DNA of 64,000 bases from Eubacteriales bacterium (GCA_045537905.1 JAZSQJ010000067.1:2493-66492), one strand, 5' to 3'; shown: positions 11,714 through 54,560, counted from the stretch's first letter. The notes: generated from the sequence alone by a model not told the origin. Numbers and translations are program-made.

Positions 11714-12469
11714 TTAAAGCTCCATTACCAGACCAACAGGACAGTGGTCGCTGCCCATCACATCGGGATAAATGAGACTGTCCTTGATTTTGTCCTTTAC
11801 ACTATCGGAAACAACAAAGTAATCAATACGCCAACCAACGTTTTTAGCTCTTGCCATAGCACGGTAAGACCACCAGGTATAGGCGTCCTTCATATCGGGA
11901 TACAGATAACGGTAGCTGTCAACAAAGCCTGACTCAAGAAGGGCGGAAAAACAACTGCGTTCTTCGTAAGAAAAGCCCGGGTTGCCGACGTTAGGCTTGG
12001 GGTTTTTAAGGTCTATCTCGTTATGAGCAACATTCAAGTCGCCACAAAGTATTACAGGCTTACTACGGGAGAGATTGGATAAATACATCCTCATATCCTC
12101 CTCGTACTCCATACGGTAATCAATGCGTTTAAGCTCAGGCTGGGCGTTGGGTGAGTAGCTTGTTGCAATATAAAACTCCTCAAACTCAAGAACTATAAGC
12201 CTGCCCTCGTCGTTGTATTTACCGTTTATACCGTATGCAACACTCAAAGGCTTTTCTTTAGAAGCGATAAGAGTGCCGGAGTAGCCTTTTTTATCGGCAG
12301 AGTTCCAATAGGTATAATACCCGTCAAAGCTGAAATCAGCCTGATTTTCTTGCATTTTGGTTTCCTGCACGCAAAAAACATCAGCGTCTGCTTCCTTAAA
12401 AAAGTCAAAAAAGCCTTTGCCGGCGCAAGCTCTAAGCCCGTTAACGTTCCAAGAAATAAACTTTTTCAT
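11714..12469 (-). CDS. xth: Exodeoxyribonuclease III (AP endonuclease)
   Basis: SWNVNGLRA, VFCVQETK and the C-terminal SDHCPV motif. 251 aa. Confidence 0.92.
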   Translation of the reverse strand: MKKFISWNVNGLRACAGKGFFDFFKEADADVFCVQETKMQENQADFSFDGYYTYWNSADKKGYSGTLIASKEKPLSVAYGINGKYNDEGRLIVLEFEEFYIATSYSPNAQPELKRIDYRMEYEEDMRMYLSNLSRSKPVILCGDLNVAHNEIDLKNPKPNVGNPGFSYEERSCFSALLESGFVDSYRYLYPDMKDAYTWWSYRAMARAKNVGWRIDYFVVSDSVKDKIKDSLIYPDVMGSDHCPVGLVMEL

Positions 12470-13689
12470 TACTGCTCGTCCAGGCTGGAGTCTACAGAGG
12501 CCTCAGCGTTTTCTCCATCCAAATATGCGTTATATTCAACCATAAGCTCGGCAAGCAAGCGTGTAACGGCGTTAAACTGATATTGGCTACGCTCATCCTC
12601 GATGCCGCTACGCCCCATAAGGCCTACCAAAACATACTGATGTCCGTCGGCAAACACTACACCTGCATCATTAAATGCCTTACCGCTCCAACCGGATTTA
12701 TGAGCCGCCTCGTACTGAGGAATAGCACGCCAAATATAGTTATACATTGCGTGCATAAATCTGTCAAACAGCTCCGCACCGCTTTCGGAGGACAGGCTGT
12801 AATGGTAAATCTCACGCCATACAGCCGCCATTTCAAAGGCGGTTATATAACCCCAATTGCTACCCACGGGGATAACTCTGTCGGAGCCTAAGGAGGTCAT
12901 CATCTGCTCAAAATTTTCAACACCCACAAGCTCCTTTATCATCAGATAGGCCTGGTTATCGCTTATTCTGATCATATAATCCATAAGAGTTTTTACGTCA
13001 AAGCCTGTGCCGTAGGGAGAGTTTTGAACCCAGCCCGTACTGTTTGCCTGAAAATGCCAAGGCTGATAGGTTTTTATAGTGTCCCAACCGATTATACCGT
13101 CGTCGATACACTTATATGCATAAAGCGCCATAGGCCCTTTTATAGAGCTTGCGGTGGCAATTTTCGTGTCCTTAGAGTAGAAAAACGCCATATTCGTTTC
13201 AAGCTCTATCAAAGCAACAGACTGGGGGTTGGCAAAGGAAGCAAACTGCTTTTCCAGCTTCTTTGCTAACTCCTCACTTATACGGAAATCGGTATTATAA
13301 AGCTCCATTTTACCGTTTTCCCACACCTTGTTCATTTCAAGAGGTGCGCTTATGGGAGTGAACCTGTTTTCCGCAGGCACATCCTCGGAAGAGTCCTCGC
13401 TAATATCCTCAGAGCTGAAATCCTCGCTCGTGTCCTCAGAACCGTCATTACTTTCGGTCCTGCTTTCCTCGGACGAATCCTCCGAAGAGAAGGCAGAATT
13501 TTCCCCAGAGCTATCCTCTGTAGAAGCGTCTGCTGAGGATTGTGCATCATTGCTTACTCCATGAGAGCTGTTCTCTGCGGAGCCGTCAACAGACTGGTCG
13601 GGCTCGGTATAAGCGGAATCGCAAGCGAACATACATATACACATTAAAACACAAAGTATAATGCACAGAAAGCTTTTGAATAATTTCAT
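12469..13689 (-). CDS. Class A beta-lactamase-fold serine hydrolase, lipoprotein with an acidic low-complexity linker
   Basis: Lipobox MFAC. SxxK (SSIK), SDN (ISDNQ) and KSG (HKSGWSG) appear in the canonical order. The stop overlaps the xth start (TAATG). Confidence 0.75.
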   Translation of the reverse strand: MKLFKSFLCIILCVLMCICMFACDSAYTEPDQSVDGSAENSSHGVSNDAQSSADASTEDSSGENSAFSSEDSSEESRTESNDGSEDTSEDFSSEDISEDSSEDVPAENRFTPISAPLEMNKVWENGKMELYNTDFRISEELAKKLEKQFASFANPQSVALIELETNMAFFYSKDTKIATASSIKGPMALYAYKCIDDGIIGWDTIKTYQPWHFQANSTGWVQNSPYGTGFDVKTLMDYMIRISDNQAYLMIKELVGVENFEQMMTSLGSDRVIPVGSNWGYITAFEMAAVWREIYHYSLSSESGAELFDRFMHAMYNYIWRAIPQYEAAHKSGWSGKAFNDAGVVFADGHQYVLVGLMGRSGIEDERSQYQFNAVTRLLAELMVEYNAYLDGENAEASVDSSLDEQ

Positions 13690-13695
13690 AGTAAC

Positions 13696-13932
13696 TTATG
13701 CCCTTTCAGATATAATTGCAACCATTTCTCCAACGTTTTTCATTGTAGAAACTTCCTTCATTGCAAATTTTATACCAAACTCACCCTCTACAGCGGAAAT
13801 AAGAGTAATGTGGGAAAGGCTGTCCCAATCCTCAACGTCCTCGGCGGTGGTTTCTGCGGTAAGTTCAATCTTTTCGTCAAAAACCTCTTCAAATATCTCT
13901 TCAAGCTTTGCGTATATTTCCTTATTAGTCAT
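13696..13932 (-). CDS. Acyl/peptidyl carrier protein (phosphopantetheine attachment site)
   Basis: 78-aa acidic protein with a DWDSLSH serine motif at the expected helix-2 position. Confidence 0.85.
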   Translation of the reverse strand: MTNKEIYAKLEEIFEEVFDEKIELTAETTAEDVEDWDSLSHITLISAVEGEFGIKFAMKEVSTMKNVGEMVAIISERA

Positions 13933-13944
13933 CGTAATCTCTCC

Positions 13945-15720
13945 TTAATTAACTTTTATATACCTGTTTTTGTCAGTATATTTATCAATTTCAAGACGCC
14001 AGACAGTGTTACCCTTTTCATCGGCAGAAAGCAGCTCAAAACCAAAGGCTTTATATAGCTCTCTTACCATATTGTTTTTAGCGGTAGGATAATAATAGCC
14101 TATAATCTCGCTAACTCCCTGTTCTTTGCAACGCTTTACCAGGGTGTCAAGCATTGCAAATTCCATATCCCTTTTAAGCACACGGCAGGACATAATCCAA
14201 AGCTCCATATGCAGTGCTTTTTCCACCTTTTTGCCTATAACAACAGAAACTACGCCGTTGTCGCCAAAGCGGTCGGTCAGCTTACCGTACAGGTCGATGT
14301 ATCCATCGTTCGATGCAACGTCTGCAATTTCATCAGCAGTATAACGCTTGGTTGTAACGTTAAACTGGTTGCTTTTATTTGTAAGCTGGGCAATACGCTG
14401 TATATACACCGGCGCAAAAGAGTCTATCTCTGCTTGCATATCAAGACTTTCAAGATACTTACCGTAATCGGCAAAGCTAAGCTGCTCCTGCTCACGCAGG
14501 GCATTTGCCTTATACATTTCGTTTCTCTTAAGGTCATCCTCGGAAAGAGTAGTAACCTCAAAGTAGCCTGCCCTGTCAATAACCTTAATATAGCTTTCAA
14601 CGGTACCAATCTCGGGCACAGCACAAGGCAGTGACTGTCTGACAATGGCACGCTCTGCCGGGTTATCGTCCACAAAAACAATCGCATCAGAGCCAATATT
14701 TATTTGCTTAGCTATTGCGGCAATGTTAAGATTTTTAGGCTCCCAGTTTGCTTTTATCACCAAAAAATCATCGGGAGACAGTACGCTGTCGGGGTGTTTC
14801 AGTCCCGCAATGGCATTCTCGTGGTCGTTCTTGGAGGATACGCTAAGCATTACGCCTATATCCTTATGCTTTTTGATATAAGACTGAAACTCTGTAAAGG
14901 CTTGCGCCGTAGGAGTTTCGGTGCCAAGCTCAAGCCCCTCAACGCCGTCGTCACCTACAATACCGCCCCAAAGAGTGTTATCCATATCCAAAGCAAAAGC
15001 CTTTTTGTTTTTACCGAATAAGGACTTTATAATGTTACTGAGGTTATAGGAAAACTCGGGTATGGCATCAATCGCCATAATATATTTGTACATATACCAA
15101 CAGGAAGGGTCTGACCATTTATCAAGACCGTAGCAGGCGGAGATATAATTTATATCCTGTACGTAAAAGGACTGATGTGTTATGGCGTACTCTGAAACAA
15201 ACATATTCATACGCTGTATAAAATACGCCTTTCCGTGTATATCAGCCACGTCCTTGTTACCAAGCAAGCGGTAAGATGGCATCTCAAAGTTGTTCTGGAT
15301 AATCGGACAATGATATGCAGCCTCAAGCCTTTGCCACATTTGGGAAAAATGCGCCTTTGCATGCTCAAAAAGCTCCTCACAGCGTTCATTGCTGTCAGCT
15401 ACGGAGGGTAAAAACCTCTCAAGATTACGGGTAGAGGTATGGATGTATATAAGGTCAGGTGAGAACTCCCTAAGAGCTTCGTTTTCAAACATCGCATCCT
15501 GCCAATACTGAGCATATTCTGATTGATAAAAGCAGGGGGCTATACCGTTGTCGAGCAAAAACAGCTCACAAATATCAACGATATCATTGGTTGTAGAGCC
15601 ACCCAGTACGGCAATCTTCTTTGATATACGGCTGCTACCGTCAGCAAGCAACGCCTTTTTTAGCTTTCTTTTGCCTCTTAGTATTTCAGCAGAATTAAAC
15701 GGATATGAAATCAAAGCCAT
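13945..15720 (-). CDS. FkbH-like HAD-IIIC family enzyme (HAD phosphatase core plus C-terminal acyltransferase-like domain)
   Basis: HAD motif I LDMDNTLWGG, the VFVDDNP motif, and a conserved Cys in IMSCRVLKR, as in FkbH-type glyceryl-ACP synthases. Confidence 0.85.
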   Translation of the reverse strand: MALISYPFNSAEILRGKRKLKKALLADGSSRISKKIAVLGGSTTNDIVDICELFLLDNGIAPCFYQSEYAQYWQDAMFENEALREFSPDLIYIHTSTRNLERFLPSVADSNERCEELFEHAKAHFSQMWQRLEAAYHCPIIQNNFEMPSYRLLGNKDVADIHGKAYFIQRMNMFVSEYAITHQSFYVQDINYISACYGLDKWSDPSCWYMYKYIMAIDAIPEFSYNLSNIIKSLFGKNKKAFALDMDNTLWGGIVGDDGVEGLELGTETPTAQAFTEFQSYIKKHKDIGVMLSVSSKNDHENAIAGLKHPDSVLSPDDFLVIKANWEPKNLNIAAIAKQINIGSDAIVFVDDNPAERAIVRQSLPCAVPEIGTVESYIKVIDRAGYFEVTTLSEDDLKRNEMYKANALREQEQLSFADYGKYLESLDMQAEIDSFAPVYIQRIAQLTNKSNQFNVTTKRYTADEIADVASNDGYIDLYGKLTDRFGDNGVVSVVIGKKVEKALHMELWIMSCRVLKRDMEFAMLDTLVKRCKEQGVSEIIGYYYPTAKNNMVRELYKAFGFELLSADEKGNTVWRLEIDKYTDKNRYIKVN

Positions 15721-15742
15721 AATTTACCTCATCAAAAACAGT

Positions 15743-16987
15743 TTAGGGTGCGGTGCGTAAAGTCTCCAGGTATTTGTGTACAGGACCTGTAGCCGTAAAG
15801 GCTGAAACAGCAATAGCTACGTCGGTAGCACCAACGTCCTTACAGAATTTTACGCCGTTTTTTCCATAATATCTTATATCGAGAATATACACCTCGTCAA
15901 AGGAACCAAGGGTGAAAGGTGCAAACGCATTACCATAGCTGTCCTTTAATACCACAAGCTTTCTGCCCGTGTTATTTTTAGTTACAACCTTAACAGCGTA
16001 GGTGTCTCCGCATATAAAAGCGCCCGCATAGCTTTTTGTATCAAACACTATGCTGTTTTTTGTCATATTGGGCTTAGACAAATCGTAATTACCGCGTGTA
16101 TAGTAGTAGGCGGTATACTCAGTCTGAGGCATATAAATATAAAAATCCTCTGGATTTTGTCTTATAACTTCAGCCTTTGAAAAGGTATAAGCAGAGCCTA
16201 TAAAGTTAGGCTTTACAATCTCCTTATAGCTTTCAATAGGCGGAAAGCTTACACCGGCAACCTTTGCAAACTCCTCTGCGGCATAGAAGGCAGCCAAAGC
16301 ACCCCAGTGAAATTCCGTTCTGGGGTAGATGGGCTCATCCACGTGCTTCCATAAAGCGTTATAGGTATCAACAAACTTTACGTCAGAGTTAAGCTTTGCC
16401 TTCATATCGTTAAAGTTGACTTTACCACGCTCTATAAGATTGGAATAGCTTTCAGGTGCGTAATAACAACTGGCGTGGGGGGCAACTACGGTATAGAGAT
16501 TAATACCCTCACCTAGATCTTTTTTGAAATTGTTTACAATATTGCAGAAGCTGGCTCTGTTGCTATCGCCGCCAAAGTATTGCTCCATACCTCTGGTACC
16601 GTTTATGAGTATACCGTTGGAGATAAACACCCTATCGTTAGGCACAGCAACACCGGGAGTGGTGGTAGTACTACCGCCGTTACCGGTAGAAGGCGCTTGA
16701 GAGGAAGAATTATCTTGGGATTCTGCCCTGCTCTCCTCTACGCTTTGTTCTTCACTTGTTTCCTCTGTAGTCTCCTCGCTTGTTTCTTCTGTGGAGGCTG
16801 CCGATTCCTCAGAGCTGTCACCTGCTTCAACAGAAGCGTCAACGGTAGAATCAGTAGTAGAATCAGCAGAGCTGCTTTGTTCACTGCTTGTATCGGCGGC
16901 GGAGCCGTTATCAGGTGTTTTGATTTCCGCACAAGAGGAGATTAAAAGTGTAAAAACCAATAAAGCTGAAATTAAAAACCGTTTCAT
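15743..16987 (-). CDS. DHHW-family (AlgJ/AlgX-like SGNH-type) extracytoplasmic protein, lipoprotein, paralog 1
   Basis: Lipobox ISSC, a ~90-aa S/E/T/D linker, the motif TEFHWGALAAFY (Glu at the Asp position), and LKDSYGNAF. Confidence 0.8.
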   Translation of the reverse strand: MKRFLISALLVFTLLISSCAEIKTPDNGSAADTSSEQSSSADSTTDSTVDASVEAGDSSEESAASTEETSEETTEETSEEQSVEESRAESQDNSSSQAPSTGNGGSTTTTPGVAVPNDRVFISNGILINGTRGMEQYFGGDSNRASFCNIVNNFKKDLGEGINLYTVVAPHASCYYAPESYSNLIERGKVNFNDMKAKLNSDVKFVDTYNALWKHVDEPIYPRTEFHWGALAAFYAAEEFAKVAGVSFPPIESYKEIVKPNFIGSAYTFSKAEVIRQNPEDFYIYMPQTEYTAYYYTRGNYDLSKPNMTKNSIVFDTKSYAGAFICGDTYAVKVVTKNNTGRKLVVLKDSYGNAFAPFTLGSFDEVYILDIRYYGKNGVKFCKDVGATDVAIAVSAFTATGPVHKYLETLRTAP

Positions 16988-18192
16988 TAACGAGTCCTCA
17001 TAGAATTAATTTTCTTTGCGTGACCGCAAGCGGAAGAGGAGCTGAGTGCAAATATCACGTCAGTAGCACCAACGTCCTTGCAGAACGTTATGGAGTTGCC
17101 TGTGTAGAATCTGAAGTCAACAACGTAAATCGTCTCATACATAGACATAAGCATAGGAGCAAAGCAGTTGCCAAAGCTGTCCTTGTAAACAACAGCAGTT
17201 CTGCCGTTATTAGTGTTGGTGGTAATCTTGGCAAGCCTGTTATCGCCGCCAAGGAAGGTCATATACCAGGATGCGGCGTGGTTTACCGTCAGGTAGCAGG
17301 TAGGTCTGGTAGCGATAAGCTTTTTACCTGTTTCCACATCGTAATACTCAACGTTGTAATCCTCGTTGTATTCAAACCAGAAAAACTCGTCAGGGTTTTC
17401 CTTCAAAACTGTAGGATTACCCAGCTTGCTGTAGTAATAACCGTAAAAGCCTTGAGGAGTGCCGTCCTCGTTGTACTTGCCGTCCTTAGTGTAAGCACCG
17501 CTTTCAAGGGTCTTAAAGGGCAAGCCTGCCACGGATGCAAACTTTTGTGCGGCATAATACGCACCAAGCTGAGTCCAGTGGAAGTCTGTGCGGAAATAAA
17601 TCTGTTCGTCCCAATGCTCGTAAAGGGTATCGTAAACGTTTACGCTCGTAACACCGGTGCCCTCAAACTTTTCGTCAAGATAATCCAGCTTATCTTCCTG
17701 ATTGCCGCCATACTTTTCGTAAAAGTCAACACCGTCTCTTACATAGTTTCTGAGATAGATGGAATTTGAGGTAGGAACAACCATAGAGAATACGTTAACG
17801 TCAGCGCCAAGGTCTTTTTTGTACTGGGCGATAACCTGACTATAGTAGTTGAAGCTATCGTAAGTGCCACCGAAAACGTCCATACAACGGGTGCCAAGAA
17901 GCAAAATGTTGTTGTAGTTATTAAACTCTTCACCCTTGTCGGCAACATCGCTGAAGGTAGAGCTATCATCGGGAGTGGAGTCCACACTCTCAGAGCTTTC
18001 ATCCTTGTTATCAACACTTGCATCTGCAGATGTGTTGGGAGCTACGGAAGAATCTTTGTCCGGTGTGGTGCTGTCGCCGGACATATAATCCGGCGTAAAG
18101 GATGATTCATCATCGTACTGAATGTTTGCACAGGCAGTAAGAGCACTGAGCAAAAGGGTTATAGTTAAAAATACGGTTAATGCTTTTTTCAT
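16987..18192 (-). CDS. DHHW-family (AlgJ/AlgX-like) extracytoplasmic protein, lipoprotein, paralog 2
   Basis: I chose the start at MKKALTVFLTITLLLSALTAC (lipobox) instead of 18258. Motifs TDFHWTQLGAYY and YKDSFGNCF. Confidence 0.8.
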   Translation of the reverse strand: MKKALTVFLTITLLLSALTACANIQYDDESSFTPDYMSGDSTTPDKDSSVAPNTSADASVDNKDESSESVDSTPDDSSTFSDVADKGEEFNNYNNILLLGTRCMDVFGGTYDSFNYYSQVIAQYKKDLGADVNVFSMVVPTSNSIYLRNYVRDGVDFYEKYGGNQEDKLDYLDEKFEGTGVTSVNVYDTLYEHWDEQIYFRTDFHWTQLGAYYAAQKFASVAGLPFKTLESGAYTKDGKYNEDGTPQGFYGYYYSKLGNPTVLKENPDEFFWFEYNEDYNVEYYDVETGKKLIATRPTCYLTVNHAASWYMTFLGGDNRLAKITTNTNNGRTAVVYKDSFGNCFAPMLMSMYETIYVVDFRFYTGNSITFCKDVGATDVIFALSSSSACGHAKKINSMRTR

Positions 18193-18220
18193 TATTATAG
18201 CCTTTCTGGAAATATATATT

Positions 18221-18577
18221 TTATCCGTTATAATCCTCAAAGGAAAATTCTTCTTCACTTTCGGGTCTGGAGTCCTGGGCTCCGTCCTGAACGTTGGAGC
18301 CTTGCAAATCGGTTTCTATACCGAAGTTGGATTTGATTTGATTAACCAGCTCCCTAAACTTGGAACGGTACGGTATTGAATCGGTATACCAGTCGGCAAT
18401 CTGCTCGGTATACCTGCCGTTAAAGTATGACTCTGCGGTAAAACGGGGAAATTTTGTTATCATTCTGTTTTCGCCCTCTGCAAAGCCGTAGGTTCTGGGA
18501 AAGAAGGACATAAAGCCGATAAACAACACAAATACCAAAACTACACAAAGTATGTTGATAAGGTAAAACTTTTTCAT
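18221..18577 (-). CDS. Small single-pass membrane protein resembling the N-terminal module of DHHW/AlgJ-type proteins
   Basis: N-terminal TM helix, then PRTYGFAEGENRMITKFPRF...YRSKFRE and an acidic tail. It lies 11 nt after the MBOAT gene. Confidence 0.6.
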   Translation of the reverse strand: MKKFYLINILCVVLVFVLFIGFMSFFPRTYGFAEGENRMITKFPRFTAESYFNGRYTEQIADWYTDSIPYRSKFRELVNQIKSNFGIETDLQGSNVQDGAQDSRPESEEEFSFEDYNG

Positions 18578-18588
18578 CGTATCCCTCC

Positions 18589-20022
18589 TTAAAATCTGAA
18601 GTACAGGAACGGATTGTTAGAAGAATCCGTAAGCATAACTATACAAAGGAGCAACAGAATGATATTTGTTACACCCGTAAGACAAACCGCAACCGACTCC
18701 CGTCCCTCGTTAGCGTAAAACCATTTTTTAATCTTAGGTAATATGGGAAAGCTAACGACAGCAGAAAGCACTATCAAATATAAATTGTTAAGAATAGTCG
18801 ATTTTGAAACGGGATCAAGGAAGGTATTGTTATTTGCAAAGACAATATTGCCAAAGAAGGTACCCAGGTCGCCAAGGTTTTCAAAATAGAATATGGCAAA
18901 GCCTATTATAACAACTATCAAAGAATAGATATGAGAAACCGCCTTTGGAAGCTTTTTCATCCTTTTTTTGCCAACAAGCATTTCAATGAGAATAAACGCA
19001 CCGAAATATAAGCCCCATATAATGAAGTTCCAGGACGCACCGTGCCAAAAACCTGTGCAAAACCAAACGAGGAACAAGCTGAGGTACTTTCTTCTTTTGC
19101 CGAAAATTGGCACATACAGCAAATAGTCACGGAAGAAGGTGCCCAGAGATATATGCCAACGCTGCCAAAACTCAGAAATGTTTTTACTTACAAAGGGATG
19201 CTTAAAGTTTTCATCAAAATGGAAGCCGAAAATCCTGCCTATACCGATAGCCATATCGGAGTAGCCTGAAAAGTCAAAGTAAACGTACAAAGCATAGCAG
19301 ATAACGCCAACCAGGGTGCCAACAAAGCTTTGACCTGCAAGTACGCTGGAGGGCAGGTGATCTACAGCACCGTAGTCCCCCAACAGATTGGTTACAACGC
19401 TAAACAGGTTGTTGGCAATAAGAACTTTTTTAGACAAGCCAACAACGAAACGAGTAGCACCCTCGCTAACGTCCTTTAAGGTGCTTTTACGGTTATGTAT
19501 TTCCTCTTCGATGGTTGCATAACGCACGATGGGCCCCGCAACAAGCTGAGGAAACAAAGAGATATAAAGAAGCAGATTAAAAAAGTTTTTCTGTACGTCT
19601 ACCTTACCCCAATAACAGTCTATAATGTAAGACATTATCTGGAAGGTAAAAAAGCTTATGCCTATAGGCAGAACGATGTTTGTAAGCGGTATGGATGTGC
19701 TGAATACTGCGTTTATATTCTCAATAAAGAAATTTGTATACTTGAACACGAAGAGCAAGCCGATATTGAACACAATAGCCAGAGAGACAGACAACTTTGC
19801 CGCAACCGTGTCCCGCTTTTTATCTATAATCAATCCCGCAAAATAGTTTACTGCGGTTGACAGCAGCAACAGACCTACGTAAGTAGGCTCACCCCAGGCG
19901 TAAAATATCAAAGAAAACACTATTAAAACAGCATTCTTCATCCATAGTCTCGGGCTTAAAAAATACAGAAGGAAGCAGGCTGCTAAAAAAACAAATATAA
20001 AAAACAAATCAGAAAAAACCAT
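18589..20022 (-). CDS. MBOAT-family membrane-bound O-acyltransferase (AlgI/DltB/PatA-like)
   Basis: More than 10 TM segments. Conserved His motifs WQRWHISLGTFFRDY and GFWHGASW. Confidence 0.9.
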   Translation of the reverse strand: MVFSDLFFIFVFLAACFLLYFLSPRLWMKNAVLIVFSLIFYAWGEPTYVGLLLLSTAVNYFAGLIIDKKRDTVAAKLSVSLAIVFNIGLLFVFKYTNFFIENINAVFSTSIPLTNIVLPIGISFFTFQIMSYIIDCYWGKVDVQKNFFNLLLYISLFPQLVAGPIVRYATIEEEIHNRKSTLKDVSEGATRFVVGLSKKVLIANNLFSVVTNLLGDYGAVDHLPSSVLAGQSFVGTLVGVICYALYVYFDFSGYSDMAIGIGRIFGFHFDENFKHPFVSKNISEFWQRWHISLGTFFRDYLLYVPIFGKRRKYLSLFLVWFCTGFWHGASWNFIIWGLYFGAFILIEMLVGKKRMKKLPKAVSHIYSLIVVIIGFAIFYFENLGDLGTFFGNIVFANNNTFLDPVSKSTILNNLYLIVLSAVVSFPILPKIKKWFYANEGRESVAVCLTGVTNIILLLLCIVMLTDSSNNPFLYFRF

Positions 20023-20064
20023 AACATCCTCATTCTACATTGTTTACAAACTTTATCAACGTAT

Positions 20065-20093
20065 AGTATATAACAAAAAGCAATTAAAGTCAA
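20065..20093 (-). promoter_or_regulatory. Candidate sigma-A promoter of the MBOAT operon
   Basis: On the minus strand: TTGACT (20093-20088), 17 nt spacer, TATACT (20070-20065). Confidence 0.45.
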
Positions 20094-54421: not shown

Positions 54422-54462
54422 AAAAACAAGGCACACTTAACTTGTAAAAAGTAAAGTGTGCC
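54422..54462 (-). terminator. Intrinsic terminator forming the expression platform of the ZTP riboswitch
   Basis: Minus-strand RNA: ggcacacuu, 15-nt loop, aagugugcc, then uuguuuuu. The 5' arm overlaps the CUGGGCA of the aptamer. Confidence 0.8.
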
Positions 54463-54545
54463 CAGACGGTCGGCTTTAACGCAAAAAACATACATTCTTT
54501 GTTCCCTTGTGGTAACCCACAATAATCCGTCAGTAGCAAAGAATG
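54459..54545 (-). promoter_or_regulatory. ZTP (pfl-motif) riboswitch aptamer
   Basis: Minus-strand RNA: P1 cauucuuug...caaagaaug; ACUGACGG; P2 UGUGGGUUACCACAAGGGA; linker; GCCGACCGUCUGGGCA. The pseudoknot is GACGG with CCGUC. This matches the conserved ZTP core. Confidence 0.85.
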
Positions 54546-54560
54546 GCAATCGGTGTCTTT

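Follow-up and report, generated by a model that had tools for sequence, protein, structure and literature searches.

Pairs of a membrane-bound O-acyltransferase (MBOAT) with an SGNH-type transferase are the main route by which bacteria place esters on envelope polymers (peptidoglycan, alginate, cellulose, secondary wall polysaccharides and teichoic acids), and these esters govern resistance to lysozyme and antimicrobial peptides, phage adsorption and immune recognition. To our knowledge, current models recognise two types of donor: acetyl-CoA, for MBOATs with a fused shuttle tyrosine, and D-alanyl-DltC, for DltB and DltX. PatA of C. jejuni auto-acetylates the tyrosine of its C-terminal FxYxxF motif, and PatB uses the acyl-tyrosine as donor; DltB has no such motif and uses the microprotein DltX instead, and MBOAT/SGNH pathways other than Dlt use acyl-CoA and hence work without a carrier protein (Anderson et al., 2025; PMC12148441). 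Here we describe a gene cluster in a 64,000-nucleotide stretch of DNA from a Eubacteriales bacterium (GCA_045537905.1 JAZSQJ010000067.1:2493-66492; hereafter, the window) whose products include an MBOAT, two DHHW-family lipoproteins, an FkbH-like enzyme (hereafter, the loader) and a stand-alone acyl carrier protein (ACP). We lean, with moderate confidence, towards reading it as a carrier-protein-fed MBOAT-SGNH pathway that would O-acylate a cell-envelope polymer, most simply with a glyceryl group.

Genes and proteins of the operon

The cluster (12469-20022) consists of seven open reading frames (ORFs) in the same direction on the minus strand, with 28 nt or less between neighbouring genes (Table 1). 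An ORF check found all of them exactly where an earlier, sequence-only reading of this DNA had placed them, and the profile matches and every motif quoted for these seven packed genes were confirmed as well. This includes the FkbH-type identity of the loader (TIGR01686 above its cutoff, catalytic signature intact), the two DHHW/AlgJ-like lipoproteins (profile scores, lipoboxes, and the [DE]FHW and KDS[YF]GN motifs) and the 78-aa carrier protein (PF00550 above its cutoff, DWDSLSH present). As the same reading had claimed, there is no adenylating ligase, polyketide synthase (PKS), non-ribosomal peptide synthetase (NRPS) or glycosyltransferase in the flanks of the cluster.

Table 1. Coordinates of features in the window and of variant loci elsewhere (the latter numbered within each locus).
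Feature	Position	Strand	Profile match or remark
MBOAT, 477 aa	18589..20022	-	PF03062, E 3.9e-23, 82.7 bits (cutoff 27)
Single-pass membrane protein, 118 aa	18221..18577	-	DHHW profile positions 1-76 only, E 8e-10
DHHW#1 lipoprotein	16987..18258 (ORF; GTG at 18258)	-	PF14286, E 3.7e-35, 122 bits (cutoff 25)
DHHW#2 lipoprotein (LISSC)	15743..16987	-	PF14286, E 1.4e-33, 117 bits (cutoff 25)
FkbH-like enzyme (loader), 591 aa	13945..15720	-	TIGR01686, 280 bits (cutoff 146.65; profile 3-321 of 323); PF21211
Stand-alone ACP, 78 aa	13696..13932	-	PF00550, 26.6 bits (cutoff 20.8)
Beta-lactamase2/PBP-A-like lipoprotein	12469..13689	-	PF13354, 97 bits
Two promoter-like sites	20032..20093	-	TTGACT-17-TATACT and TTGATA-16-TAGAAT; each 10/12 matches; consensus matches only
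Terminator, 13-bp stem (8 pairs GC)	20153-20124		Belongs to the preceding amidase/dockerin gene
N-acetylmuramoyl-L-alanine amidase, 729 aa	20175-22364	-	Amidase_3
ZMP/ZTP riboswitch	54453-54547	-	RF01750, 59 bits (gathering score 39)
ORF, 774 aa	31418-33742	-	No Pfam match at E 1e-5
ORF, 639 aa	5750-7669	+	No Pfam match at E 1e-5
ORF, 376 aa	26623-27753	+	No Pfam match at E 1e-5
Tailoring-gene loci	L024 11800-13973; L075 2039-5069; L078; L086; L041 12036-12443; L043 5806-6949; L003 14773-15940
S. meliloti RCAM1750 locus	L088 815-5849
FkbH-ACP loci without MBOAT	L040 7818-12029; L093 2-3494
MBOAT amid SGNH-like paralogues	L056 12027-19989

The loader has three domains: FkbH_N (residues 35-232), a HAD-IIIC phosphatase and a C-terminal acyltransferase domain of GNAT fold. 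The HAD residues are in place (D245xD247xT249, in DMDNT at 245; S296-K297-N298; K323/K329; D351-D352), and the C-terminal domain carries Cys512 within S511-C512-R513 (SCRV at 511). As comparators we used the gene in the ZmaN position of a B. cereus zwittermicin cluster (L087) and a long-form homologue from a Streptomyces cluster (L089), which also encodes ketosynthase III, an ACP, a phosphopantetheinyl transferase and an AfsA-like protein, and which looks tetronate/butenolide-type. In the alignment, the DxDxT, SKN, K and DD residues and the S-C-R cysteine are invariant among the three proteins, and the HAD phosphatase residues and the cysteine are also invariant across 80 species. OzmB, ZmaN and FkbH reportedly put 1,3-bisphosphoglycerate on a cysteine, remove the 3-phosphate with the HAD domain and pass the glyceryl group to an ACP. 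The retention of the phosphatase residues argues for a substrate with both a phosphate monoester and an acyl phosphate, as in 1,3-bisphosphoglycerate, and since the operon in the window has no tailoring genes, glyceryl would be the simplest product. An AlphaFold model of the loader (pLDDT 75) places Cys512 at a strand end of the C-terminal domain, for which Foldseek returns the GNAT fold; such a fold would fit acyl transfer to a pantetheine arm.

The predicted phosphopantetheine site of the ACP is Ser38, in DWDSLSH (DSL at 37). The 73 ACPs linked to loaders form a well-conserved family that keeps the DSL motif (consensus T.A.DI.DWDSLEHINL..AVE.EFG.KF.MGEV..MKNVGEM). The window ACP reaches the cutoff of none of the named NCBIfam ACP equivalogs, and its best solved match is 2LML.

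The MBOAT has its two histidines in WHISL (H290; motif at 289) and FWHG (H327; motif at 325), both of which align to the DltB structure 6BUG. Its sequence ends in FLYFRF, i.e. the FxYxxF acyl-shuttle motif, with Tyr474 encoded at 18601-18603, and this motif is kept in 66 of the 72 full-length MBOATs of FkbH loci. Against the DltB equivalog TIGR04091 the protein scores 158 bits, far from the cutoff of 375, and neither the operon nor its flanks encode an AMP-binding ligase, DltX or DltD. Judged from its sequence, the MBOAT is PatA/AlgI-type in architecture and not DltB/DltX-like, because the C-terminal FLYFRF carries the shuttle tyrosine motif. The label 'Dlt-like' given to the cluster by the sequence-only reading is thus apt for the use of a carrier protein, but not for the MBOAT, given its score and its fused motif.

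Both DHHW paralogues have the Ser, D/E-x-H and DxRY motifs in common with PatB1. Numbered from the GTG at 18258, DHHW#1 has D225-x-H227 in DFHW, Ser361 in KDSFGN, and DFRFY, though its true start is likely the ATG at 18192 (16987..18192), which gives MKKALTV... and the lipobox LTAC. DHHW#2 has E225-x-H227 in EFHW, Ser350 in KDSYGN, and DIRYY; its closest solved structure is 4NZK from Eubacterium siraeum (E 2.5e-55), and PatB1 of B. cereus is matched at E 1.7e-7. Paired DHHW paralogues are seen again in other loci. The 118-aa protein, described in the sequence-only reading simply as a transmembrane protein, does span the membrane but is not a separate kind of protein: it consists of a transmembrane and a juxtamembrane segment (ENR...P.F...Y.D..P.R), matches the start of the DHHW profile and aligns with the N-termini of single-gene DHHW proteins in related loci. 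The two DHHW genes of the window, for their part, begin with lipoprotein signal peptides, and the DHHW protein is thus split here into a membrane module and two lipoprotein catalytic paralogues. L001 and L072 show this split too, and it therefore is no sequencing artefact. A role of the 118-aa protein as a DltX-like acyl shuttle was rejected, since FxYxxF stands at the end of the MBOAT and the N-termini of DHHW proteins are what the 118-aa protein aligns to.

Immediately 5' of the MBOAT gene, a strong terminator followed by two promoter-like sites probably marks the start of the operon. Its 3' end is not defined: the packing of genes runs on past the last lipoprotein gene into exonuclease III, RadA and other housekeeping genes. 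Spacing alone is therefore no evidence of a functional unit, and comparative evidence is needed.

Linkage across genomes

Our census scanned one genome per GTDB species and comprises 80 loci, in which ORFs were called and searched with the seven window proteins. A homologous ACP directly follows the loader in 68 of the 80 loci, and lies somewhere in the flanks in 75. An MBOAT is found within 10 kb of the loader in 63 of the 80; in 59 of those 63 it is on the same strand and no more than 5 kb away. Within 2 kb and on the same strand are 45 of the 73 MBOAT ORFs, and numbers drop steeply with distance. Co-occurrence of the ACP/FkbH pair with MBOAT/DHHW genes had been set beforehand as a test able to refute the sequence-only reading, and the adjacency of the ACP and the proximity of the MBOAT answer it strongly in favour. 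Among the 17 loci without an MBOAT, five are truncated contigs. In two further loci, integrase, Rep or FtsK genes are inserted beside the module.

The linkage is kept through at least three gene orders in several phyla. Class A (MBOAT-DHHW(-DHHW)-FkbH-ACP) is found in Oscillospiraceae and Ruminococcus, and class B (FkbH-ACP-(tailoring genes)-MBOAT-SGNH-like) in Lachnospiraceae, Bacilli, Christensenellaceae and Odoribacter, while the pSymB replicon of Sinorhizobium meliloti has the order MBOAT-X-ACP-FkbH. The partner protein in class B belongs to a family of about 350 aa with weak GDSL similarity, which also includes protein X of S. meliloti. Class B loci are often inside glycosyltransferase-rich exopolysaccharide/capsular polysaccharide (EPS/CPS) clusters. 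Class A four-gene modules are isolated, with ribosomal, ThiC or PASTA-kinase genes as neighbours, and no further enzyme that would use an ACP is encoded around them. In E. siraeum-like Ruminiclostridium metagenome-assembled genomes (MAGs; L048, L060, L065 and L069), DHHW-DHHW-FkbH-ACP lies beside Pth and Mfd, and the MBOAT is absent within 10 kb. The MAG of L048 (CANRGJ01) has an orthologous solo MBOAT on another contig (L096), 57% identical and with the same C-terminal motif, between NadA and aldose epimerase genes: the system of this MAG is split over two loci. Overall, the linkage pattern argues strongly for one pathway made of loader, ACP, MBOAT and DHHW.

The joining of loader and ACP with an MBOAT and surface transferases is met in hundreds of species, and the loader itself is widespread. 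It has at least 8000 close database relatives, most of them 60-86% identical and from Ruminococcaceae, Lachnospiraceae and other Clostridia, and 5175 cluster representatives match it at E 1e-30 or better in a 50%-clustered library. The window loader belongs to a clade of its own, within which identities stay above 55% across phyla.

The seventh gene of the cluster fared differently. The sequence-only reading had counted a class-A beta-lactamase-fold lipoprotein as a member; the fold family holds (PF13354; motifs S181xxK, S243DN and K331SG), but the class A assignment does not, as the protein reaches 45 bits against model NF033103, whose cutoff is 200, and among solved structures its best relative is PBP-A TLL2115 from a cyanobacterium. 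Its membership was not upheld either: homologues are present in L001/L002 (the nearest relative) only, and in none of the 80 census loci. The lipoprotein would thus be a lineage-specific neighbour, co-transcribed but not core, whose relation to the system is doubtful; the idea that it is a conserved DltE-like esterase of the system was rejected because of the same restricted distribution. Its stop codon overlaps the start codon of the exonuclease III gene (Exo_endo_phos) at 12469. This overlap and the synteny are kept in L001, so that an envelope operon leads directly into DNA-repair genes (xth ... radA).

Proposed relay and competing explanations

From the observed family memberships, conserved catalytic residues and cross-genome linkage we infer a 1,3-bisphosphoglycerate substrate, ACP-to-MBOAT transfer, acyl-Tyr and acyl-Ser intermediates and an acceptor, in the following order. 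In the cytoplasm, Cys512 of the loader would capture the acyl group of 1,3-bisphosphoglycerate, the loader's own HAD domain would remove the 3-phosphate, and the glyceryl group would pass to the phosphopantetheine arm on Ser38 of the ACP. The acyl group would then travel via the histidine-lined tunnel of the MBOAT to Tyr474 of the C-terminal FLYFRF, at the outer face, from where the lipoprotein DHHW transferases would move it to their catalytic serine and on to a hydroxyl of a constitutive wall glycopolymer. Docking of the DHHW transferases would probably be aided by the 118-aa membrane module.

Several observations weigh against this reading. Characterised fused-shuttle MBOATs use acetyl-CoA, and the 2025 PatA paper describes such pathways as lacking a carrier protein (PMC12148441). 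The loader is only 27-29% identical to characterised FkbH enzymes and PKS-type comparators, DHHW#2 has a Glu in place of the catalytic Asp, and DltC is not among the PDB matches of the ACP, which is no closer to DltC than to generic ACPs. In about a dozen complete loci, FkbH-ACP is present and no MBOAT lies nearby, and more distant loader homologues pair with cytoplasmic transferases and not with MBOATs, i.e. the FkbH-ACP pair is not exclusive to the latter. Lastly, genes for the target polymer are absent nearby: no polysaccharide or teichoic acid genes were found in the 64-kb window.

The divergence of the loader bears first on the nature of the acyl group. The same relay, from ACP through MBOAT and DHHW to the polymer, could carry something other than glyceryl, derived from another phosphorylated acyl phosphate or made by unlinked enzymes that alter glyceryl-ACP ahead of export (e.g. 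to lactyl, pyruvoyl or hydroxymalonyl). We regard this as unlikely, yet worth serious consideration. TIGR01686 is a subfamily-domain model and not an equivalog, and some class B loci have tailoring genes, of kinds typical for ACP-tethered substrates, between the loader and the ACP/MBOAT: a split transketolase with a MaoC dehydratase (in cases with an aldo-keto reductase), glyoxalase/VOC with SDR, or MaoC with SDR. These combinations imply other small hydroxyacyl products in related loci and suggest that the variants draw on a palette of related small hydroxyacyl-ACP donors; by analogy with the bryostatin loading module, MaoC and SDR could give lactyl. However, the invariance of the HAD residues and of the cysteine, in 80 species and in ZmaN, matches a 1,3-bisphosphoglycerate-like substrate, and tailoring enzymes are missing from the window operon as well as from the minimal four-gene modules.

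A second explanation, to which we give little credence, is that one operon holds two independent modules, the MBOAT and DHHW proteins O-acetylating a wall polymer from acetyl-CoA (cf. PatA1/PatB1) and the FkbH/ACP pair providing glyceryl-ACP for a different enzyme encoded elsewhere, e.g. a cytoplasmic N- or O-acyltransferase whose substrate is a sugar precursor or a lipid. The architecture of the MBOAT is indeed that of the acetyl-CoA-using PatA/AlgI enzymes, solo MBOATs occur, and FkbH-ACP pairs are found without an MBOAT beside Antibiotic_NAT/DUF4910 or a cytoplasmic protein. But linkage is tight across phyla and through rearranged gene orders, no further candidate for an acceptor enzyme is encoded in the minimal four-gene modules, tailoring genes sit interspersed between ACP and MBOAT, and DHHW-DHHW-FkbH-ACP stays unbroken also where the MBOAT lies at another place in the genome.

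The loci without an MBOAT deserve a closer description. In L040, DUF4910/DUF2172 and Antibiotic_NAT genes are directly upstream of FkbH-ACP; in L093, an SDR-like gene is upstream and a 340-aa cytoplasmic protein of no known family is encoded downstream. Both suggest a cytoplasmic acylation route from the same donor, in an arrangement that presumably resembles the flagellin-glycan locus of C. jejuni. The FkbH-ACP pair looks like a donor module of general use in the decoration of glycans, the MBOAT route being characteristic of the >55%-identical loader clade.

Finally, we attach very little probability to a real relay whose acceptor is not a wall glycopolymer and instead is a membrane glycolipid, a lipoprotein or S-layer glycan, or peptidoglycan (the beta-lactamase-fold lipoprotein then being a cognate esterase or DD-peptidase in this lineage), since polysaccharides are the substrates of characterised DHHW/AlgX-family enzymes, class B loci are embedded in EPS/CPS clusters and the lipoprotein is found in none of the census loci, even if the absence of polysaccharide and teichoic acid genes from the window, the two Amidase_3 genes that flank the operon and the PBP-A-like lipoprotein at its end speak for such an acceptor.

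Surroundings, other carriers and described systems

The remainder of the 64-kb window is housekeeping: hydrogenase, FTHFS, purine and pyrimidine genes, and ABC transporters. In the 729-aa amidase encoded upstream of the operon, the domains in the middle are repeats and the C-terminal one is a type I dockerin. A wall hydrolase anchored in the manner of cellulosomes suggests that the host is Ruminococcus-like and bears a cellulosome, and the nearest relatives likewise speak for an Oscillospiraceae/Ruminococcus-like MAG. An ordinary ZMP/ZTP riboswitch lies upstream of genes that are apparently purine/folate-related, and three long ORFs of the window gave no Pfam match at the threshold used (Table 1).

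Among the other carriers, the locus in S. meliloti RCAM1750 (L088, on a pSymB-like plasmid) encodes an MBOAT, a 409-aa protein, an ACP and a HAD-IIIC protein whose gene product has 628 aa, beside genes for a glycosyltransferase of family GT2 and a calcium-binding protein. The 409-aa protein is annotated as a 'TonB-dependent receptor', yet it is a member of the SGNH-like partner family. In L088 the same system is thus available in a Gram-negative bacterium amenable to genetics. SMb20651 was considered as the ACP of the pSymB cluster and rejected, as it is paired with an acyl-CoA-ligase-like gene at a different locus. In L056, a single MBOAT lies amid five paralogues of the ~350-aa SGNH-like partner family.

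Full-text searches, with subscription-only papers outside their scope, found no literature linking FkbH or HAD-IIIC enzymes with bacterial MBOAT/SGNH acylation; the only co-mentions concerned aeruginosin-type NRPS clusters. Within the same scope, this agrees with the sequence-only reading, which was aware of no description of such chemistry for MBOAT systems. Extended beyond the window, our reading would be that a large, unrecognised family of carrier-fed MBOAT-SGNH systems puts glycerate-derived small hydroxyacyl esters (glyceryl, and lactyl or related groups in the tailoring variants) on envelope glycopolymers, being abundant in gut Clostridia and sporadic in other phyla, rhizobia included. 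We consider the chances of this broader proposal to be evenly balanced. If true, it would provide the first MBOAT that joins a phosphopantetheine-carrier donor with a fused tyrosine shuttle. A third kind of donor would join the two recognised so far, together with a new class of substituent, and fused-shuttle MBOATs could take carrier-protein donors. It would also give FkbH a role outside polyketide and non-ribosomal peptide biosynthesis, and point to surface chemistry as yet uncharted in the Oscillospiraceae and Lachnospiraceae that dominate in the gut. Cultured carriers are at hand for genetics in Eisenbergiella tayi DSM 26961 and S. meliloti.

With the glyceryl-ACP synthases of the FkbH/OzmB/ZmaN/tetronate type the operon shares a HAD-IIIC enzyme whose C-terminal domain bears the S-C-R cysteine, together with an adjacent, dedicated ACP; the homologue from the Streptomyces cluster also shares the long form with the FkbH_N domain. 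Unlike polyketide FkbH systems, the operon has no ketosynthase, PKS or NRPS partner, its loader belongs to a separate clade (27-29% identity), and the predicted fate of the product is export as an ester, not condensation into a polyketide. Aeruginosin-type clusters (suomilide, varlaxin) do combine an FkbH domain and an MBOAT in one gene cluster. In these, however, the FkbH domain belongs to an NRPS module that loads glycerate and the MBOAT acts separately (in suomilide it is deduced to acylate the Abn moiety), with no ACP-to-MBOAT relay.

On the export side, PatA1/PatB1, which O-acetylates the secondary cell wall polysaccharide of B. cereus, as well as PatA/PatB and AlgI/AlgJ/AlgX, have the same combination of an MBOAT with a C-terminal FxYxxF and a DHHW/AlgX-type SGNH transferase. 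These systems use acetyl-CoA, with no carrier or loader, whereas here FkbH-ACP is genetically coupled to the MBOAT, and the DHHW protein is split into a transmembrane module and two lipoprotein catalytic paralogues. Compared with Dlt, the loader is an FkbH-type HAD/GNAT enzyme instead of an adenylating ligase, the predicted acyl group is a neutral hydroxyacyl instead of D-Ala, the shuttle motif is part of the MBOAT itself, fused at its C-terminus, with no DltX microprotein, and the transferase is of the DHHW family and not DltD, with an MBOAT at 158 bits against the DltB cutoff of 375. What the operon has in common with Dlt is its stand-alone position among housekeeping genes and the predicted logic of its relay, in which a cytoplasmic carrier with a phosphopantetheine thioester would feed an MBOAT, an acyl-tyrosine shuttle, an extracytoplasmic SGNH-type transferase and finally a wall polymer.

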